The notes below the pieces were generated by a model. That model saw only the letters and a list, made by a program, of their open reading frames with translations, was not told the DNA's origin and searched no databases. This document shows positions 19,758-31,078 of a stretch of DNA of 64,000 bases, one piece after another. Within the stretch, counting starts at the first letter, position 1. Every line of letters starts with the position of its first letter. This DNA is from Candidatus Eiseniibacteriota bacterium (lineage in GTDB: Bacteria; Eisenbacteria; RBG-16-71-46; CAVPCR01). Both the position numbers and the translations under genes were made by a program. Location of the stretch: contig CAWGMA010000001.1 in assembly GCA_963823555.1 (NCBI GenBank), positions 1,696,001 through 1,760,000 of the forward strand. The letters are read 5' to 3'.

Positions 19758-19782
19758 TACCGGCGCCCTCTAGATGTGGACT
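19736..19782 (+). promoter_or_regulatory. Tandem NrdR boxes
   Basis: CCCCAAGATGTGGGGC (19736-19751) and CCTCTAGATGTGGACT (19767-19782) both keep the C-n-A-n-AT-n-T-n-G core of the NrdR consensus. They start 31 bp apart and lie upstream of an RNR gene. Confidence 0.8.
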
Positions 19783-20073
19783 CCACGGATGTTTGGTGGA
19801 GCCCAGGCAGACCCGAGGACGGATCTGTTTCGAGCCCGTCCTGGGGCCTGCCCGAGGGTGGTGTCGGACAAGGCCCAGGTCTCCCCCTATCGCCCTTCGG
19901 TGCCCCAACCGGGCGGTTGGGTCAACATGCCCTCGCTCCACCTGCCAAGCCGAAGGCCCCCGTCCGCTCCCAGGCACAATCAACCATCGACCTATCGTTT
20001 TCCCAGTAGTTCGGGAGCGATCGGACCCTTCGCACTCGAACCCCCGCCCCCGCGGGTCACGGGAGGTGCCGCA

Positions 20074-23000
20074 GTGAGCATGGACGCCATGCACCCCACC
20101 GACGTTTCCGCCACCCAGTTTCCGACCTCCGTCTCCCCCTCGACGCCCACGCCGCAACCGAGCGCCGCTCCGTCTTCCACTCATTCCACGACGGAAGGGC
20201 CGCGCACGGGCCGCATGATCCGCCGCCGCTTCACGACTCCAGGGGTGGACCCGTTCACCGGGATCACCTTCGAGGAGCGCGACGCTCGCATCCAGAACTC
20301 CGACGGTTCGGCCGTCTTCGAGATGCGGGGAGCCGCGATCCCCGCCGACTGGTCGCAGCTCGCCTCGGACATCCTCGTCTCCAAGTACTTCCGGAAGACC
20401 GGGGTCCCGGGCACGGACTGCGAGAAGAGCGCGCGGCAGGTGGTCACGCGAATCGCCCGCACCATCCGCCAGGCCGGGGAGTCGCTCCACGGCTACTTCG
20501 CGGACGCCGAGGAATCGGAGACTTTCGAGGCCGAGCTCACCTACATGCTGATCCGCCAGATCGGTGCTTTCAACTCGCCGGTCTGGTTCAACTGCGGGCT
20601 CGCGCAGTCCTACGGCATCACCGGCCGCCCGGTGGGGAGCTGGGTCTGGGATCCGGCCGCTCAGGCGACCGTCCCGACCCGGGATGCCTACACCCACCCG
20701 CAGCTCTCGGCATGCTTCATCCAGTCGATCCAGGATGACCTGATGGACATCGCCGGGGCCGTCCAGCGCGAGATGCGGCTCTTCAAGTTCGGCTCCGGCA
20801 CCGGGACCAACTTCTCCACCCTCCGCGCCGAGGGCGAGCGCCTCTCGGGCGGGGGCACGTCGTCGGGGCTCATGAGCTTCCTCGAGATCCTCGACCGCGC
20901 CGCCGGGGCCACCAAGTCGGGCGGCACCACCCGCCGCGCGGCCAAGATGGTGATCCTCGACGCCGACCACCCGGATATCGAGAAGTTCATCAACTGGAAG
21001 GCCCGCGAGGAGGAGAAGGCTTCGATCTTGATCGCCGCCGGCTACGAGTCGGACTTCAACGGCGAGGCCTACAAGACCGTGAGCGGTCAGAACTCGAACA
21101 ACTCGGTGCGCCTCTCCGACGACTTCATGCAGGCCGTGATCGACGACCGGGAGTGGACCACGCACTTTCGCACGACCGGCGAGGAGGCCCGGACCTTCCG
21201 CGCCCGCGACCTGATGCAGCAGATCGCCTACGCGGCCTGGCGCTGCGCCGATCCCGGGCTCCAGTTCGACACCACCATCAACCGCTGGCACACGTGCAAG
21301 GAGAGCGGGCGCATCAACGCCTCCAATCCCTGCTCCGAGTACATGTTCCTCGATGACTCGGCCTGCAACCTGGCCTCGATCAACCTGATGAAGTTCGCGG
21401 GCGAGGACGGCACCTTCGACGTCGAGGGCTACCGCCACGCGGTGAGCGTGTTCACGCTGGCCATGGATATCATCGTCGATCAGGCGAGCTACCCGACGCA
21501 GGCCATCGCCCAGCACAGCCACGACTACCGGCCGCTGGGCCTGGGCTACGCCAACCTGGGCACGCTCCTCATGGTGAACGGCATCCCGTACGACTCGGAC
21601 ACCGGGCGCGCGACGGCGGCGGCCCTGACCGCCATCCTCACCGGGCGGGCCTATGCCACCTCGGCCGAGATCGCGGCCCGCAAGGGCCCCTTCGCCGGGT
21701 ATCCGAAGAACCGGCTCCCCATGCTCGAGGTCATGAACATGCACCGGGACACCGCCTACGCCATCTCGGCCGGCGACTGCCCGTCCTACCTCCTCGCCGC
21801 AGCGCAGGAGGACTGGGATCATGCCCTCCGCCTCGGGGAGCGTCACGGCTACCGGAACGCCCAGGCCACGGTGATCGCCCCGACCGGAACGATCGGGCTC
21901 TTGATGGACTGCGACACGACGGGCATCGAGCCCGATTTCGCGCTCGTCAAGTTCAAGAAGCTCGCGGGCGGGGGCTACTTCAAGATCGTGAACCGCTCGG
22001 TCAACCGGGCCCTCGAGATGCTCGGTTACACGCCGGAGCAGATCCAGGACATCCTCACCTACGTCACGGGCACCATGAGCCTCAACGGCGCTCCGCACGT
22101 CAACCGCGCCGCGCTCCAGCAGCGCGGGCTCGCCGCCGATGACATCGATCGCATCGAGCGGTCGCTGCCCGGGGTGTTCGAGCTGAAGCACGCTTTCCAG
22201 GCCTCCGCCCTGAGCCCGGTCACGCTCGCGCGCCTGGGGATCGCCGAGGCGGATGCCCGCCGGCCCGGATTCGATCTCCTGACCCGGCTCAACTTCTCGG
22301 CCGGCGAGGTGGCCGAGGCCGAGGAGGTGATCTGCGGGCGGATGACCGTCGAAGGGGCCCCGCATCTCAAGGCCGAGCACCTCGCGGTCTTCGACTGCGC
22401 CAATCGCTGCGGCCGGCACGGCCAGCGCTTCATCGATCCCATGGGTCACGTGCGGATGATGGCGGCGGTGCAGCCCTTCGTCTCCGGGGCGATCTCGAAG
22501 ACGATCAACATGCCCGAGGAGACGACCGCCGAGGACGTCTACCGGACCTACATGGAATCCTGGCGGCTGGGCTTGAAGGCGGTGGCCATCTATCGCGATG
22601 GCTGCAAGCGCTCGCAGCCGCTCTCGAGCTCCGGGGAGGGCAAGAAGAGCCGCCTTGCGGCCGCCGAGAGCGAGGGCAAGACCTCGACCACGGCGCCGCT
22701 GGCGGCCGGGGCGGCACCCGGTGCACCCACCCCAGGCAAGGGCAACGGCAATGGCTCCAATGGCGACGGGACCCCGGCGACCGCGGCCGCACCCGCTCCG
22801 GCTGCGGCCGCCGGGCCCGCGCCAGCCCCCGCTCAGGCCCCGACGGCGTCGCGACGCCAGCGCCTCGGCAAGAAGCGCCGCGGGTTCACCCAGGAGGCGC
22901 GTGTCTGCAACAACAAGGTCTACGTGCGGACCGGCGAGTACCCGGATGGCCGTCTCGGCGAGATCTTCATCGACATGCACAAGGAGGGCGCCGCCTTCCG

Positions 23001-23454
23001 CAGCATGATGAACTGCTTCGCCATCTCGGTCTCCCTCGGGCTCCAGCACGGGGTGCCGCTCAGCGAGTACGTGGACGCCTTCGTCTTCACCCGCTTCGAT
23101 CCGCAGGGACCGGTCGAGGGCCATCCCAACATCAAGTTCGCGACCTCGATCGTCGACTACATCTTCCGCGTCCTCGGCATGGAGTACCTGGGCCGGACCG
23201 ACTTCCTGCAGGTGAAGCCGGCCGACATGGACGTGGCGGAGGAGAAGGCCCTCGAAGCCCTGGCCAACGGGGCGCCGGCTGCGGCGGCCGGGGGCGGTGC
23301 GGGGGCCGGGACGGTGAGCCCCTCGGGGCTCGGGCAGCAGATGCGGACCCTCATGGGCGACGCGCCCCTCTGCGATATCTGCGGCAACATCACCGTCCGC
23401 AACGGCACCTGCTACAAGTGCATGAACTGCGGGAACTCGATGGGCTGCTCGTAG
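20074..23454 (+). CDS. nrdJ: Class II (adenosylcobalamin-dependent) ribonucleotide reductase
   Basis: AFNSPVWFN, QLSACFI, SGGTTRRAAKM, catalytic SNPCSEY, TVIAPTGTIG, SGAISKTIN, YRDGCK; TSCPD-like domain and C-terminal CDICG..CYKCMNCGNSMGCS; RBS GGGAGG before the GTG at 20074. Confidence 0.95.
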   Translation: MSMDAMHPTDVSATQFPTSVSPSTPTPQPSAAPSSTHSTTEGPRTGRMIRRRFTTPGVDPFTGITFEERDARIQNSDGSAVFEMRGAAIPADWSQLASDILVSKYFRKTGVPGTDCEKSARQVVTRIARTIRQAGESLHGYFADAEESETFEAELTYMLIRQIGAFNSPVWFNCGLAQSYGITGRPVGSWVWDPAAQATVPTRDAYTHPQLSACFIQSIQDDLMDIAGAVQREMRLFKFGSGTGTNFSTLRAEGERLSGGGTSSGLMSFLEILDRAAGATKSGGTTRRAAKMVILDADHPDIEKFINWKAREEEKASILIAAGYESDFNGEAYKTVSGQNSNNSVRLSDDFMQAVIDDREWTTHFRTTGEEARTFRARDLMQQIAYAAWRCADPGLQFDTTINRWHTCKESGRINASNPCSEYMFLDDSACNLASINLMKFAGEDGTFDVEGYRHAVSVFTLAMDIIVDQASYPTQAIAQHSHDYRPLGLGYANLGTLLMVNGIPYDSDTGRATAAALTAILTGRAYATSAEIAARKGPFAGYPKNRLPMLEVMNMHRDTAYAISAGDCPSYLLAAAQEDWDHALRLGERHGYRNAQATVIAPTGTIGLLMDCDTTGIEPDFALVKFKKLAGGGYFKIVNRSVNRALEMLGYTPEQIQDILTYVTGTMSLNGAPHVNRAALQQRGLAADDIDRIERSLPGVFELKHAFQASALSPVTLARLGIAEADARRPGFDLLTRLNFSAGEVAEAEEVICGRMTVEGAPHLKAEHLAVFDCANRCGRHGQRFIDPMGHVRMMAAVQPFVSGAISKTINMPEETTAEDVYRTYMESWRLGLKAVAIYRDGCKRSQPLSSSGEGKKSRLAAAESEGKTSTTAPLAAGAAPGAPTPGKGNGNGSNGDGTPATAAAPAPAAAAGPAPAPAQAPTASRRQRLGKKRRGFTQEARVCNNKVYVRTGEYPDGRLGEIFIDMHKEGAAFRSMMNCFAISVSLGLQHGVPLSEYVDAFVFTRFDPQGPVEGHPNIKFATSIVDYIFRVLGMEYLGRTDFLQVKPADMDVAEEKALEALANGAPAAAAGGGAGAGTVSPSGLGQQMRTLMGDAPLCDICGNITVRNGTCYKCMNCGNSMGCS

Positions 23455-23474: not shown

Positions 23475-23516
23475 GGAGGCCCGGAGCGGTGGACCGCTCC
23501 GGGCCTCCCTTGCTTT
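23475..23516. terminator. Probable bidirectional intrinsic terminator
   Basis: Perfect 16-bp inverted repeat GGAGGCCCGGAGCGGT / ACCGCTCCGGGCCTCC between convergent nrdJ and the sigma54 activator, followed by CTTGCTTT. Confidence 0.75.
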
Positions 23517-23567: not shown

Positions 23568-26024
23568 TCAGTCGATCCCGAGCCGTCGGATCTTCCCGAG
23601 CAAGGTGGTCCGGCTCATGTTGAGGAGCCGCGCCGCACGGGCCTTGTTCCCTGCAGTCTTCTGCAACGCGTCGACGATGAGGCGACGCTCGTGGTCATCG
23701 ATGGCGCTGGCATACCCACTTGCCTGAGCGGCTGCCCCCGACCTCTCCGCCCCAGCAGAACGCGCAATCTGCGAGTCCTCGACTCGCATGGTCTCACGGT
23801 CATGACTCAGGAGGACCATACGATGCACTTCCTGACGCAGTTCCCGCACGTTACCCGGCCAGCTGTAGCTCTTGTAGAGGGACAGGAGATCCGCCGACAC
23901 GTCGGCGCGTTTCCCGTACTGCCGCTGATACTGCTCGAGGTAGTGCAGCACGAGGACCTCGATGTCCTCGATGCGCTCACGAAGCGCGGGAATGCGGACC
24001 CAAAGACCGTTCAAGCGGTGATAGAGATCACTGCGGAAACTGTCGTCGCGCGCTGCCTGCTCCAGGTCCCGGTTCGTGGCTGCCACAACGCGCGCGTCGA
24101 CGCGCCGGGACTTGAGCTCCCCGACCCGCCGCAATTCGCCGTTCTCCAGCACGCGCAGTAGCTTCCCTTGCGCCCCAAGATCCAGATCGCCGATCTCATC
24201 GAGGAAGATGGTACCGCCGTCGGCCTGCTCGAAGAGCCCGGGCTTTTCGGACGTCGCGCCGGTAAACGACCCTTTGACGTGACCGAAAAGCTCCGACTCA
24301 TGCAGTTCTTTGGGCAGCGCCGCGCAGTTGACCGCGATGAAGCGATCCGCCGGGCGGCCGCTCAGCTCCTGAACCGCCCGCGCCACGAGTTCCTTCCCCG
24401 TCCCGGACTCCCCCGTGATGAGGATCGGCAAGCTACTTGGGGCCACGCGGGCCAGTCTCTCGAGCATCTCGTGCATCTCGCGGGAGCGCGTGATGATCGA
24501 GACCGATCCAATCGAGTGCACGCCGCGCTCGATCGCAGGCGTCGCCGTGCGTTGCACGCCGGGATCGGGAGCGTCGGGTTCTGTCAACCGCATGACCTCG
24601 CCAAGCTCTTGGTCCACTCGCTCGATCCACCGCGTCACTCCAAGATCGGCGAAGTGATCCCGCGCTTCCCGCAGGTGCTCACCAGCCGCACCAAGTGTCA
24701 GCGTGCTTGGATCGGAATCGCGGAGGTGGCAGGCGAATTCAACCAGGGTCTTGGCCAACTCGTAGCGATCGCCGAGTTCTCGCATCTCCTCGATCCCGCG
24801 CCGGAATGTCTGCTCCGCGTCTTCGCGGGCCCCGAGCATCGAGTGCGCCATGGCAAGCGGGCGATGGACCACCGCATGCTCATAGCGATCCTCGTTGTGC
24901 CTTGCGACATCCTGGCAACGGCGAGCGGCAGCAAGCGCCTTTTCGTATTCACCTAGACTGTTCCAGGCTTCCGCTTCCCGACGCTTGCCTTCGGTCGTGG
25001 CATCAGTCATGCCGATCTTCTCGCCGCGGGCGATGCACTCGGCATACCGCTCGATAGCTTCGGCTGGCTTGCCGCGCTCATACGCGATCTCGCCGAGGCA
25101 CTCGAGCGCTGCCAACTCTTCGCGGACTAGGCCATTCTCGCGGGCGATACGCAATGCGCGTGATGCGTGGCTGTCTGCCGCCTCAAGATCCCCTCTTCGG
25201 ATCGCGAGAAGACAAGTGATACTCTCGATTCGCGATAAATCGCTACTCAATCCCAGAGAACCTGCCACCGCAGAAGCACTCGTCAGCCGACACTCAGCAT
25301 CGCCCCAATCTCCGAGAAGCACCAAACAGATCGCATCATTGCAGGCAGTAGTTATACGTTGCTTGGGGCCGACAGCGTCCGCCTGAGCGATATCGTTGAA
25401 CAACTCTTTTGCGACTCTCAGCCGACCTGCGGCCATATGCGTCCTAGCAACATCGCCACTGGCACGCACAGAGTTCGAGATGTCCCCCAGGAGCAGCGAC
25501 AGGGAAGCTGCCGTGTTATAGGCCGCAATGGCTCGGTTGAACTGCCTTCTCCTCGCGAAGATATGACCTAGAGCAAAGTGGTAATTGATGGTGCTCCGAG
25601 TGTCCTTTGCTTCGCAGACCTTCGGTGCGGCTAGCGTTAGGATCTCAGCAGCGCGATCGATATCCCCCGCTTCGCGAAGAACGCTCGCGACTACGAGAAA
25701 AGCCCCAATCTGCTGGACTGGAGAAATGGTCTTGAGCGCAGCGTGTTGTAGGACTCCATCAATGAGATCGAGCGCCTCACGCACTGCACCACGCCTTCTG
25801 AGTGATTCAAGCAACCTCGAGGCGTAGTAGAGCCAGTCGGCAGCGTGCAGATCAAGTTCATCAGCGCGACGCAAAGCGTCGCGACACAGTTCGGCTGCGG
25901 AAGACACCTCGTCCGAACGAGCGAACAGTGAGACTAGGGCATCGAGGGTCTCACGAAGGTCTTGGAGGTTCTTGCAGTCGCCGAGCCGCACATGAATCAA
26001 GTCCGCACCGTCATTGAGGTTCAT
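23568..26024 (-). CDS. Sigma54-dependent enhancer-binding protein with a long N-terminal TPR sensor domain
   Basis: Walker A GESGTGKE, ESELFGHVKGSFTGA, Walker B IFLDEI, FRSDLYHRL, WPGNVREL, Fis-type HTH GNKARAARLLNMSRTTL; the first ~480 aa are TPR-like helical repeats with no REC or GAF motif recognised. Confidence 0.9.
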   Translation of the reverse strand: MNLNDGADLIHVRLGDCKNLQDLRETLDALVSLFARSDEVSSAAELCRDALRRADELDLHAADWLYYASRLLESLRRRGAVREALDLIDGVLQHAALKTISPVQQIGAFLVVASVLREAGDIDRAAEILTLAAPKVCEAKDTRSTINYHFALGHIFARRRQFNRAIAAYNTAASLSLLLGDISNSVRASGDVARTHMAAGRLRVAKELFNDIAQADAVGPKQRITTACNDAICLVLLGDWGDAECRLTSASAVAGSLGLSSDLSRIESITCLLAIRRGDLEAADSHASRALRIARENGLVREELAALECLGEIAYERGKPAEAIERYAECIARGEKIGMTDATTEGKRREAEAWNSLGEYEKALAAARRCQDVARHNEDRYEHAVVHRPLAMAHSMLGAREDAEQTFRRGIEEMRELGDRYELAKTLVEFACHLRDSDPSTLTLGAAGEHLREARDHFADLGVTRWIERVDQELGEVMRLTEPDAPDPGVQRTATPAIERGVHSIGSVSIITRSREMHEMLERLARVAPSSLPILITGESGTGKELVARAVQELSGRPADRFIAVNCAALPKELHESELFGHVKGSFTGATSEKPGLFEQADGGTIFLDEIGDLDLGAQGKLLRVLENGELRRVGELKSRRVDARVVAATNRDLEQAARDDSFRSDLYHRLNGLWVRIPALRERIEDIEVLVLHYLEQYQRQYGKRADVSADLLSLYKSYSWPGNVRELRQEVHRMVLLSHDRETMRVEDSQIARSAGAERSGAAAQASGYASAIDDHERRLIVDALQKTAGNKARAARLLNMSRTTLLGKIRRLGID

Positions 26025-26323
26025 AGTGTAGCCCCACCGCATGCGAGACTTATCTTGAGGAGAATCGCCAGCATTCGAGCTGAGGGAATCAGCGAGACGC
26101 TCTTCGATCCTTGCGATTCATCCAGTTCCAACGCGGGCGAAGGCACCGAATCTCCGCGGTTCGGTGAAGAGCCACCCACAACCTGCATATAATCGGGATC
26201 GTCGATTCCATCCGGGATGATCTGGGTAGTCGCCTCGCGGTATGGGAGCGCGATCGAGCTAAATGCAAAGAGGAGCCCCGCACAAAGGAACAGGGCGATG
26301 GAGAAGCGTCTCAGACCCGTCAT
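26021..26323 (-). CDS. Small (100 aa) exported protein / candidate signalling propeptide
   Basis: RBS GAGGTGAG, ATG at 26323, signal peptide MTGLRRFSIALFLCAGLLFAFSSIA, acidic core IIPDGIDDPDY, hydrophobic C-terminal segment; its stop overlaps the activator start (ATGA). Confidence 0.7.
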   Translation of the reverse strand: MTGLRRFSIALFLCAGLLFAFSSIALPYREATTQIIPDGIDDPDYMQVVGGSSPNRGDSVPSPALELDESQGSKSVSLIPSARMLAILLKISLACGGATL

Positions 26324-26417
26324 CAGCTCACCTCGAGCGTTTGCCACCTCGGAAACAACCCTCTGGGAGTGGGGACACCCATCCAGGAAGTCGCGCGGGG
26401 GAGGTGTCGTGCGGGGA

Positions 26418-26446
26418 AAACTAGCATATATCTTTACAGTGGTCAA
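26418..26446 (-). promoter_or_regulatory. Putative sigma70 promoter for the peptide-activator cassette
   Basis: On the minus strand: TTGACC, 17-bp spacer, TAGTTT with an extended TGn, in an AT-rich patch about 95 bp upstream of the peptide ATG. Confidence 0.6.
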
Positions 26447-26565: not shown

Positions 26566-27660
26566 ATGGCCAGGCCAACCCGCAAATACGGAGCCAGGCG
26601 CCCCGGCGCCGCCCCTGACCCCTCTGCCTATCCCGAGGCCGCCTACCTCATCGATTCCAACAACTACATCTTCCGGGCCTTCCACGGGGTCCCCGACTTC
26701 TCGGCCGCGGACGACCGCCCCACCAACGCCACCTACGGCTTCATCCGCACGCTCTTGATGCTCGTTCGCGAGCGGCGCCCGGCCTGGGCCGCCGCCATCT
26801 TCGAAGGGGCGGTGAGCTTCCGGAACGAGCTCTTCGCCGAGTACAAGCAGAACCGGGTCGAGCCCCCGGACAACCTCGTGCCGCAGTTCGAGGATTGCCG
26901 CCGTGCTGCGGCCGCGATCGGCTTCGCCTGCCTCGAGGCCGAGGGCTACGAGGCCGACGACTTGATGGGCTCGATCGCCGTCCGCCTCCGTGATGAGGGC
27001 CGCCACGTCGTCCTCGTGAGCGGCGACAAGGACCTGGCCCAGCTCGTGGGCGAGCGCATCTCGCTCTACGACGTGGCTCGAGACGAGGAGTTCGACCGGG
27101 AAAAGGTCATCGAGCGCTTCGGCGTCGCTCCCGAGCAGATCCCGGATCTTCTCGCCCTGATCGGCGACGCCATCGACAACATTCCCGGGATTCGCGGCAT
27201 CGGGGACAAGACCGCGGTCGCGCTCCTCCAGGGCTTCGGGTCGCTCGAGGCGATCCTTGCCGATCCGGACCGCATCGAGACCCTTGCCATCCGGAACGCA
27301 CGAGCGATCAAGGAGAAGATCATCGAAGCGGCGACCAGCGCCCGCCTCTCCCACCGGCTCGCCACGATCGCCACCGACGCCCCCATGGAGCTCGATCTCG
27401 AGGCCCTGCGCTATCGCGGGGCCGACCGGGAGGCCGTCGACGACCTCTTCGACGAGCTTCGCTTCGGTGCGCGCATCCGGGGCGAGATCCCGCTGTGGGC
27501 CGATGCTGGACCGCTCTTCGCCAGTGCCGCATCCGATGAGGCGGCCGCGCCCGAGTCACCGGACTCCCCACCCGCGCCGACCGAGAAGCCCAGGACTACC
27601 TCTGCGAAACGTGCCCGCAAGCCATCCCCTGCCAACGAGAAACAGGACAGCCTCTTCTGA
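26566..27660 (+). CDS. Standalone 5'-3' exonuclease / flap endonuclease (Pol I N-terminal family)
   Basis: LIDSNNYIFRAFH, FRNELFAEYKQNR, GYEADD, SGDKDLAQL, H3TH GDAIDNIPGIRGIGDKTA. Confidence 0.92.
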   Translation: MARPTRKYGARRPGAAPDPSAYPEAAYLIDSNNYIFRAFHGVPDFSAADDRPTNATYGFIRTLLMLVRERRPAWAAAIFEGAVSFRNELFAEYKQNRVEPPDNLVPQFEDCRRAAAAIGFACLEAEGYEADDLMGSIAVRLRDEGRHVVLVSGDKDLAQLVGERISLYDVARDEEFDREKVIERFGVAPEQIPDLLALIGDAIDNIPGIRGIGDKTAVALLQGFGSLEAILADPDRIETLAIRNARAIKEKIIEAATSARLSHRLATIATDAPMELDLEALRYRGADREAVDDLFDELRFGARIRGEIPLWADAGPLFASAASDEAAAPESPDSPPAPTEKPRTTSAKRARKPSPANEKQDSLF

Positions 27661-28205
27661 TGCGACACGCCCCCTTCAATCGTCACGACACCCCCAGGCC
27701 ACCAGCGGACGCGCCCAAGACCATTCTCTTCGTCTGCCTGGGCAACATGATCCGGAGCCCGCTCGCCGAGGCGCTCGCCAAGCGCCTGCTCGCCGAGCGC
27801 GGTCTCGCCGCCCGCTACCGCATCCGCTCGGCCGGGACGATCGCCGGACATGGCTACATCTCCCCGCCCGAGGCGGTCCGTGTCGGGGCCGAGAACGGCC
27901 TGGACATCAAGCCCCACTTGACGACCCCGCTCAGCCGCGACCTCGTCGAGGAAGCCGACCTCGTGATCGCTGTCGATCGCTCGGTGGCCGAGCAGATCCT
28001 CGACCTCGTCCCCGACCTGGGTCCGCGTCTCAAGCTCTTGACGCAGTTCGCCTCGATGCCCGGGGTCTTCGACGTGCCGGACCCGATCGGCGAAAGCCGG
28101 GATGTCTACGAGGAAGCCTTCCGCCGGATCGATGCCGGCGTGCGCGGGCTGGTCGAGGCTTTGGCAGCACGGGCAGCCGACCTCCGCTCGGGGCCGCCCT
28201 CCTAG
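27660..28205 (+). CDS. Low-molecular-weight protein phosphatase family protein
   Basis: P-loop LFVCLGNMIRSPLAE, SAGT, DVPDP general-acid loop; its start overlaps the upstream stop. Confidence 0.85.
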   Translation: MRHAPFNRHDTPRPPADAPKTILFVCLGNMIRSPLAEALAKRLLAERGLAARYRIRSAGTIAGHGYISPPEAVRVGAENGLDIKPHLTTPLSRDLVEEADLVIAVDRSVAEQILDLVPDLGPRLKLLTQFASMPGVFDVPDPIGESRDVYEEAFRRIDAGVRGLVEALAARAADLRSGPPS

Positions 28206-29761: not shown

Positions 29762-29814
29762 GAGCTTTGTTCACCTCGAAGACGCCTCTGCCGAGCGGAC
29801 GTGGAGCTACAACC

Positions 29815-31078
29815 CTAGCTGGCCGTACCAGCCTCCACCAGATCCTCCATCTTGACCCCGCGCTGGGTCTCGGCGGGAATGTAGGACTCGAGGTGGGTGA
29901 GCTGACCGGCCTCCTTGATCAGGTTGCGGGCGATCGACCATGCGCTGGACCTGGTTGGTGCCCTCGTAGATCTGGGTGATCTTGGCGTCGCGCATGTACT
30001 TCTCGATCGGGTAGTCCCGCATGAAGCCGTAGCCGCCGAAGATCTGCACGGCGTCGGTGGTGACCTCCATGGCGACGTCGGTGGCGAAGCACTTGGCCAT
30101 GGCGGCCAGCTTGGTGACGTCGCGGGTCGCCGGTCTCCAGCGGCGCCGCGGCGGCGGCGTAGACCAGCTGGCGCGCGGCCTCGATCTTCATCGCCATGTC
30201 GGCCAGCATCTGCTGGATCATCTGGAAGGACGAGATCGGCTGCGCCGAACTGCTGGCGCCGGTTGGCGTAGACCAGGGCGAGGTCGAGCGCGCCCTGGGC
30301 CGCAGGCCCACGCGCCTGCGCGGCGACGCCGGGCCGGGCGCGGTCGAGGGTCATCATGGCGTGCTTGAAGCCGCAGCCCGGGCTTGCCGCCGAGCAGGTT
30401 GCTCCGGCCGGCACGCGGCACGTTCTCGAAGTGCGGTCTCGACCACCGGCACGCAGCGGATGCCCATCTTGTCCTCGACCTTGCCGATCGAGAAGCCGGG
30501 CGTGCCCTTCTCGACGATGAAGGCCGAGATGCGCCGCGACTTGACGCTCGGGATCGGTGACCGCGAAGACGGTGTAGAGGTCGGCGACGCCGCCGTTGGT
30601 GGTCCACTTCTTCTCGCCGTCAGAGGACGTAGTCGTCGCCGTCCTCGCTCGCCCCGGCACGCGCAGGCCGCCGGCGTCGGAGCCGGCGTACTTCTCGGAG
30701 AGGCAGAAGGCGATCAGCTTCTCGCCGCGCGGCGATCTGCGGCAGGTACTTCTGCTTCTGCTCCTCGGTCCCGCCGACGCAGGATGGGGAACGAGCCCAG
30801 GGCGTTGACCGCGAAGAGCACGCCGACGCCACCGCAGGCGCGCGACAGCTCCTCCACGACGAGGCAGAGGTCGAGGACGTCGTGCCGCCCGGCCGCCGCC
30901 GTACTGCCTTCGGGATCCACACCCCGAAGAGCCCGGCCTCGGCCAGCGCTTCCTTGATCTCCCAGGGGTACTCCTGGAGCTCGTCGTACTTCGCGGCCAG
31001 CGGGCGGACGACCTTCTCGGCCACCTCGCGCGCGCGCTCCTGCCACTGGCGAGTTTCGTTGGTCATAAACGCCGACAT
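29815..31078 (-). pseudogene. Acyl-CoA dehydrogenase with many frameshifts (likely sequencing indels)
   Basis: A complete ACAD can be stitched from three frames: [87 protein letters not shown]. Confidence 0.85.

Follow-up and report, generated by a model that had tools for sequence, protein, structure and literature searches.

A small exported-type protein gene paired with a TPR-sigma-54 activator throughout Candidatus Eisenbacteria: a candidate peptide-signalling module

A 64,000-nucleotide (nt) stretch of the genome of a Candidatus Eiseniibacteriota bacterium (GenBank assembly GCA_963823555.1, contig CAWGMA010000001.1, positions 1,696,001 to 1,760,000; here “the window”, whose positions serve as coordinates) carries a two-gene cassette, entirely on the minus strand, in which a 100-amino-acid (aa) open reading frame (ORF) of exported type precedes the gene of a sigma-54 activator with a tetratricopeptide repeat (TPR) array. 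A sequence-only reading of the window had taken this pair for a possible peptide-signalling system, and its description of both genes stood. The small ORF follows a Shine-Dalgarno (SD)-like GAGGTGAG at 26326-26334 and begins with a basic N-region, an h-region with a Kyte-Doolittle (KD) value KD11 of 2.82 and an S-I-A cleavage-like site (as judged by hydropathy and pattern); these are followed by QIIPDGIDDPDY, a Ser/Pro/Gly linker and then ARMLAILLKISLAC, and the stop codon shares 4 nt with the activator ATG. Pfam assigned to the 818-aa activator the TPR, AAA+ and Fis-type helix-turn-helix (HTH) architecture that had been read from its letters, so that it combines the features by which sigma-54 bacterial enhancer-binding proteins (bEBPs) are recognized: PF00158, a GAFTGA-type loop (GSFTGA) and PF02954. 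An excerpt of PMC4641369 lists GSFTGA among the loop variants that would retain activation. Across the small ORF and the N-terminal half of the TPR the GC content is 55-59%, versus 67% genome-wide. Features of the cassette and its surroundings are given in Table 1.

Table 1. Features in and around the window cassette (window positions)
Feature	Position	Strand	Basis
Activator, 818 aa (TPR array, AAA+, HTH)	23568-26024	-	Pfam
TPR sensor domain, residues 1-481, about 12 helical hairpins	24582-26024	-	AlphaFold2 (AF2) model, structural matches, conserved polar residues
Sigma-54 AAA+ ATPase domain with lid, motif GSFTGA	23778-24497	-	Pfam PF00158, E 2.8e-65
Fis-type HTH (HTH_8)	23583-23699	-	PF02954, E 6.3e-12
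Candidate propeptide, 100 aa	26021-26323	-	ORF and codon-change comparison
Predicted Sec signal peptide, residues 1-25	26249-26323	-	Hydropathy and sequence pattern only
Acidic core QIIPDGIDDPDY, residues 34-45, candidate active peptide	26189-26224	-	Codon changes, clade consensus
C-terminal amphipathic/hydrophobic helix, residues 82-95	26039-26080	-	Family-wide hydropathy
Conserved ~90-nt 5' leader with predicted stem-loop and SD (26326-26334)	26324-26411	-	Conserved blocks, 5 clade members
C-rich site complementary to 5' end of the second cassette's predicted RNA (G000:C1:171501)	26366-26380	-	11-nt perfect complement
Predicted sigma-70-type promoter: -35 TTGACC (26441-26446), 17-nt spacer, -10 TAGTTT (26418-26423)	26418-26446	-	Sequence and clade recurrence
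16-bp inverted repeat, likely terminator between nrdJ and convergent activator	23475-23508	.	Scanner and comparison with relatives

The same gene pair recurs in the relatives of the window, which carry the title Ca. Eisenbacteria. A profile of 97 TPR domains had matches in 205 of 206 phylum genomes at E 1e-40, a cut that also lets in some unrelated TPR proteins, and most matches were far better; the loci fetched (L-numbers) were the best-ranked of the matches listed, a subset of all matches. Among distinct TPR-activator-like genes with at least 500 nt of upstream sequence, a script found a small ORF with a hydrophobic start, ending within 450 nt, directly upstream of 152 of 156. On inspection by eye, two of the four misses (L011 and L096) do have the ORF, a third is only the 3' part of a frameshifted cassette and the fourth is without the AAA domain; one of the 152 positives (L033) is itself a 3' fragment, and its candidate ORF is spurious. 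Held-out loci, from genomes and families mostly outside the profile, had an upstream small ORF wherever there was upstream room (29/29), as did all of 20 further new loci (L169-L188). The adjacency spans 18 families and many neighbourhoods, with small proteins of 85-135 aa (mostly 100-125), activators of about 770-1100 aa, and gaps from -8 to >80 nt in which stop and start codons often overlap. By hydropathy, almost every member of the small-protein family shows the N/h/c pattern of a signal peptide. Seventeen strong sigma-54 activators are encoded in the genome of the window (G000), and the two with a TPR domain both lie directly behind a small signal-peptide ORF; small hydrophobic ORFs accompanied 1 of the 15 non-TPR activators (377 nt away and without the motif described below) and 2 of 24 other TPR proteins (neither with the motif). 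The enrichment beside TPR-sigma-54 activators that had been proposed as a check (152/156 versus 1/15) was found, and the pairing is real and near-obligatory across Ca. Eisenbacteria. In searches reaching beyond the phylum, profile and word queries returned Eisenbacteria-labelled or generic TPR proteins and two cluster members with other taxon labels, a single genome-collection scan by close alignment gave three loci, and one scan of viral contigs found no relative of the window-clade TPR. At two loci of genome G003 (L031 and L032) cassettes lie in two tandem arrays of three, one of them broken, and their G-[IVL]-P-D-Q motifs are near-identical, which would fit local duplication and turnover. 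The same genome encodes, at L035:2586-4031, a TPR-only protein without an AAA domain behind a 68-aa signal-peptide ORF with GVPDE, possibly a Rap-like stand-alone receptor.

Codon comparison of the 12-codon acidic core gave eight synonymous and one nonsynonymous changes against the copy in a same-genus genome (L049 in G001), and five and two against a metagenomic copy (L144). Because synonymous changes outnumber nonsynonymous ones, these comparisons indicate that the 100-aa ORF is protein-coding and under selection; the two objections anticipated by the sequence-only reading, activators without a neighbouring small ORF and an ORF without conservation, thus did not materialize. No relevant Pfam or NCBIfam family was found for the small proteins (97 members searched). 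A look through sequencing runs listed no RNA run, and four DNA runs yielded short pieces, none of them across the small ORF. The C-terminal segment had been described as hydrophobic, which is right for the window copy (KD19 1.66), but family-wide it is an amphipathic helix (medians of 0.78 for KD19 and 0.58 for the hydrophobic moment); with KD19 above 1.6 in just 9%, a transmembrane sorting signal at the C-terminus was dismissed for the family. The expected sharing of a DPD-type motif also held in part: an acidic Pro-Asp motif is family-wide, but the core consensus of the window clade is Q-[IV]-[IVA]-P-D and not DPD. Across the 152 small proteins the classes are GDPD (80), other xDP (24), G[STVG]PD/EPD (18), GDxD (10), hydrophobic-PD (hPD; 8) and other (12). 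Which Pro-Asp of the window peptide corresponds to GDPD is ambiguous, alignment picking P43 and clade conservation favouring P37. Two motif copies occur in 13 of the 152, and the position of the motif is free, anywhere between the third residue past the predicted signal peptide and a point some 15-25 residues before the C-terminus. Asp-Pro self-cleavage was considered as a common mechanism and rejected, the GSPD, hPD and GDGD classes being without Asp-Pro.

Motif variants fall along TPR clades. A basic residue at position 197 (K/R) is found in 84 of 88 receptors paired with DPD-type peptides, and in none of the hPD-type (the window's type; 0/12), GDPT-type (0/10) or TP[YF]EEP-type (0/5) receptors; for K/R236 the counts are 87/88 DPD-type versus 0/12 hPD-type. 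An N-terminal polar set (N190, N191, K197, K236) thus varies with peptide class, with matched loss in the clade whose peptide lost the Asp before Pro, and general TPR geometry would turn these four positions towards the groove. Because it rests on about four clades, the correlation between residues and motifs is suggestive only as evidence for a match between peptide and TPR. A C-terminal polar set (R301, E302, E308, D341, E345, R348, R349, E382, R388) is conserved in P0002 as well as across almost all classes. The small ORF might alternatively be a cis-acting leader or arrest peptide, comparable to SecM, MifM or VemP, whose translation and export control translation of the activator. Such a role would suit a signal-peptide ORF that always lies upstream, is often translationally coupled and sits behind a structured, conserved leader, but it leaves the matched TPR residues unexplained, and the motif, sometimes duplicated, lies only about three residues past the predicted signal peptide in several members, at no fixed distance from the stop codon and with an activator gap of anything from -8 to >80 nt; we consider it very improbable.

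The AF2 model of the TPR domain (pLDDT 95.8) is a generic superhelix, whose structural matches were, best first, APC5, APPBP2, MalT DIII, LGN and TONSOKU, and then Rap, NprR, AimR and PlcR (Z 24.4, 23.9, 21.6 and 18.9, respectively), of which Rap and NprR have superhelices that bind peptides. MalT DIII is the closest bacterial fold (Z 26.6, root-mean-square deviation 4.0, 358 aligned), and the Pfam TPR_MalT match to the activator was below cut-off. In a sequence search RapF ranked far under LGN, kinesin light chain and AfsR. The best fold matches being mostly non-RRNPP, the fold gives no specific link to RRNPP receptors. MalT/AfsR-type sensors share this closest bacterial fold, whereas the window protein has no STAND NTPase and has a sigma-54 output. 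Co-folding of TPR residues 1-490 with the mature small protein (97-row alignments) scored 0.02 against a mark of 0.32, which counts neither for nor against binding. The TPR domain might instead sense a small molecule or another protein, with the small protein acting through a periplasmic or membrane partner or being co-regulated cargo. The MalT match speaks for this, as does the constancy of the most invariant TPR residues (R301, E302, E308, D341, E345, R348, E382 and R388) across peptide classes, but near-obligate adjacency in 18 families and many neighbourhoods, together with the loss of K197, K236, N190 and N191 where the peptide has lost the Asp before Pro, makes it improbable in our view.

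Resemblance to the RRNPP systems (Rap-Phr, NprR-NprX, PlcR-PapR, AimR-AimP), the core of the sequence-only reading, held for gene adjacency and the TPR domain but failed for receptor length and host. An excerpt of PMC10075063 gives a five-point signature (a propeptide of 10-100 aa, Sec secretion, maturation, a receptor of 250-500 aa whose TPRs bind the cognate peptide, and adjacency) and describes intracellular peptide-receptor signalling for Bacillota and their mobile elements. The window module shares with these systems a small gene, here for a predicted Sec-type propeptide, that directly adjoins (here with a 4-nt overlap) the gene of a cytoplasmic TPR regulator, the TPR superhelix, occasional duplicated motifs (duplicated pheromones being known in RRNPPA, according to an excerpt of PMC11343458) and several paralogous pairs per genome. 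It differs in a receptor of 818 aa, of which the TPR part is about 480 aa; in a diderm Ca. Eisenbacteria host; in its output through a sigma-54 AAA+ domain and C-terminal Fis HTH, with GAF in many members; and in the C-terminal amphipathic helix of the propeptide, a feature of the Eisenbacteria family. The propeptide gene lies upstream of the receptor here and downstream in Bacillales systems (excerpt of PMC9765709). The window's propeptide has exactly 100 aa, the upper bound of the signature, and most family members have 100-125 aa. Given the 818-aa receptor, the window module is not a member of RRNPP. One-component bEBPs (NifA, FhlA and NorR with GAF; PspF with its trans-inhibitor PspA) share the AAA+/HTH core and, in the longer subtype, GAF, but all of them lack both a TPR sensor of 480 residues and a partner gene dedicated to a signal-peptide protein; NCBIfam matches of the activator were all below cut-offs.

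Downstream of the cassettes, sigma-54 sites were enriched. A site scoring at least 7/8 lay within 400 nt in 27 of 84 cassettes, versus 0.6 expected from shuffles and 1/98 inside genes, always on the strand of the cassette; a score of at least 6 was reached in 47 of 84. Most of these sites are followed by non-coding sequence. In the GAF-type orthologue the predicted RNA has a near-invariant G-rich 5' hairpin, a long stem and often a U tract, with folding z of -3.0 to -6.8 in seven of eight folded and compensatory pairs within families (10/44 and 13/43). The promoter-plus-seed pattern, which misses the RNA variant of G000 itself, was present in 172 of 206 genomes, about once each, and its reversed control in 17. 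Rfam 15 gave only tRNA matches in 10 loci, with none near gathering score at E up to 5; identity with the signal recognition particle RNA or 6S RNA was rejected, both lying elsewhere in G000. The GGA in the hairpin loop and a csrA gene in G000 make a CsrA sponge a possible function. The most complete test case is the second cassette of G000 (G000:C1 ~167,600-171,650; L091:7734-11640), which encodes a 111-aa protein with GDPD twice and a TPR-GAF-sigma-54 activator, followed by a sigma-54 site and a structured RNA of ~125 nt; an atlas look-up of its peptide gave three Eiseniibacteriota clusters at 0.89, as a lead only.

Other outputs were seen behind these sites. Three more clade-specific conserved non-coding sequences follow sigma-54 sites, in the GSPD clade (L063, L072, L074, L080, L094, L100, L103), in family f12 (L036, L041, L067) and in family f11 (L059, L065, L076), the last ahead of a gene that we take to be DAHP synthase-like. 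In L042, L045, L047 and L052 a type A RNA (one of several predicted RNA types) has behind it a conserved gene for a winged-helix-domain protein (PF22977 in L045). In L062 and L079 the site lies ahead of an ORF for a lipoprotein-like product of 65-67 aa, which ends with a twice-repeated unit, G-N-E-L-[KN]-P, and may be a second propeptide that serves as output. A sigma-54 site upstream of the small ORF itself, seen in L040, L051, L060, L064, L096 and L110, suggests direct autoregulation.

Complementarity between these RNAs and the cassette leaders was scored as a perfect complement of at least 8 nt to the first 24 nt of the RNA. It was present in the own leader for 8/8 type B and 7/16 type A RNAs (9/16 in held-out type A) and in 2.2% and 2.8% of the leaders of other types, counts that are not p-values because kin are not independent. 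Perfect-complement length separates cognate from other leaders, whereas duplex energy alone does so poorly. In family f17 (L020, L111) the type B seed and its leader site have both changed with pairing kept; a family-specific U/A compensation at seed position 5 was not supported.

The window copy differs in its surroundings. No sigma-54 site adjoins it (best 3/8), which also holds for the other members of its clade and for the GDPT clade, in which the GAFTGA loop is moreover lost in the members read. Since GSFTGA is regarded as compatible with activation and no sigma-54 site is adjacent, the target of the window activator likely lies elsewhere in the genome; G000 has 41 candidate sigma-54 sites. 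In GDPT-clade members of family f9 (L004-L010, L014, L017) the loop is degenerate or unreadable and no sigma-54 site lies downstream, and these activators may be decoys or repressors. The C-rich site in the window leader would form a duplex of -27.2 kcal/mol with the first 15 nt of the second cassette's RNA (predicted net about -6 kcal/mol), and is 10-11 nt long in L050 and L147 and 7 nt in L049. Of six non-self occurrences of the 11-mer it is the sole one outside a long reading frame. Regulation of the window leader by this RNA is a lead, not a result.

The promoter proposed for the window cassette stood in one respect and not in another: a TTGAC box with a matching -10-like box is present in all five clade leaders spanning the region, in differing neighbourhoods, but a consensus scanner reported no promoter here, TTGACC-17-TAGTTT being below its threshold. 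Two-sided changes affect 3 of the 24 predicted pairs of the leader stem-loop among five clade members, and single-sequence folding of the window leader gave no significant z. The inverted repeat said to close the cassette is real, but it lies between convergent genes, the scanner scored it as a + strand terminator, that is, of nrdJ, and it was not seen 3' of the cassettes of five clade relatives; for these reasons it probably does not belong to the module. Six copies from the window clade were examined, and they occupy at least four different neighbourhoods.

Taken together, we lean slightly towards a peptide signal with a TPR receptor, an RRNPP-like input combined, by analogy, with LuxO/Qrr-like RNA feedback. 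The small protein would be exported via Sec and cleaved in the periplasm to an acidic Pro-Asp peptide, which would re-enter the cytoplasm by an Opp/OPT/PTR-type transporter and bind the TPR of the co-encoded activator, switching sigma-54 activation. In many sister cassettes a sigma-54-driven RNA would then feed back on the cassette leader, while the window copy would act on a target elsewhere in the genome and its leader would receive the second cassette's predicted RNA. The signal could pass between cells or report on the cell's own envelope. All steps beyond the genomic anatomy, the sign of the control included, we infer. A bolder version, a multi-channel cell-to-cell peptide network independent of RRNPP in which small RNAs are the main activator products and feed back on own and sibling leaders, is possible but doubtful.

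In Vibrio, LuxO is controlled by a phosphorelay from membrane receptors and the Qrr RNAs need Hfq, whereas here the input is a TPR array and the RNA has a G-rich 5' hairpin seed, a long stem and no Rfam match, in a genome in which no Hfq was found. The likeness is that of a sigma-54 activator with small RNAs, here predicted RNAs complementary to the cassette's own leader. NCBIfam describes LuxO as sigma-54 dependent, and in an excerpt of PMC3262071 the Qrr small RNAs base-pair with the mRNA of that activator itself and exert feedback by repressing a gene pair for an autoinducer and its receptor. Full-text literature searching, which covered the main text of openly accessible articles, found no description of the gene pair or the RNA, and the module is real, phylum-wide and apparently undescribed.

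Genome content is compatible with such a cycle. G000 has rpoN, an Opp-like operon, an OPT gene, csrA and Omp85 genes, the last of which indicate that Ca. Eisenbacteria is an outer-membrane (diderm) lineage. At least one peptide-importer family was found in each of 12 other genomes tested, which permits import and does not show it. An apparent lack of Opp in family f9 (ABC-permease screen, E 1e-25) was rejected, binding proteins being present in 8/8. The activator could instead monitor export or the envelope, an intact, unexported or membrane-held small protein binding the TPR via its motif, its C-terminal helix or both, so that the activator reports Sec export or membrane state in the same cell, functionally like PspA-PspF and with no diffusible signal. 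Consistent with this are the strictly 1:1 co-transcribed pair with often overlapping stop and start, a conserved C-terminal amphipathic helix that a short pheromone would not need, a motif common to the phylum rather than strain-specific, an outer membrane that complicates exchange between cells, and the failure to find an Opp-type binding protein in 2 of the 12 genomes tested. However, tandem duplication of the motif (13/152) and its free position fit a short ligand released by cleavage, signal peptides retain cleavage-like sites across the family, and some peptide importer is present in all 12 genomes; we judge the monitor unlikely, though a contender to be taken seriously.

Several observations weigh against the peptide-signal reading. 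In the structural search the likeness of the TPR domain to APC5, APPBP2, MalT DIII and LGN was no weaker than its likeness to RRNPP receptors, and the sensor domain of MalT binds a sugar. A mature protein of ~75 aa is longer than one would expect of a pheromone precursor, and the reading does not account for its conserved C-terminal helix. The residue correlation amounts to about four clade-level events, matching peptide and TPR trees are expected because adjacent genes are co-inherited, and a near-universal GDPD leaves little species specificity. On the RNA side, three other RNA types show no leader complementarity (1/7, 0/3, 1/3), about half of type A is without it, and Hfq was not found in G000 (92.5% complete). 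The window 11-mer, noticed after the fact, occurs seven times in the genome, about chance by composition; the site is just 7 nt in G001, and its blocking leaves predicted SD accessibility nearly unchanged (0.60 to 0.58).

If the bolder version, the cell-to-cell network, is correct, a diderm phylum would possess a peptide quorum system with intracellular receptors whose wiring runs through sigma-54 and RNA. Peptide-receptor signalling that is near-universal and multi-copy in such a phylum of soils and sediments would add a new bEBP input class and a new small RNA family, and would offer a starting point for the study of regulation in uncultured bacteria of this phylum. The natural motif and receptor variants (GDPD, GDPT, GSPD, hPD) would predict specificity residues and could yield orthogonal peptide-inducible sigma-54 switches.

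The flanks of the window cassette (19774-23454 and 26566-28205) are ordinary, encoding a class II ribonucleotide reductase, a stand-alone 5'-3' exonuclease and a low-molecular-weight phosphatase. At 29767-31078 a gene, presumably acyl-CoA dehydrogenase-like, is broken across several frames, which suggests that sequencing introduced local frameshifts. In G001, of the same genus, the orthologue of the window activator (L049:4893-7340) is frameshifted in the N-terminal half of its TPR, as a pseudogene or through an assembly error.

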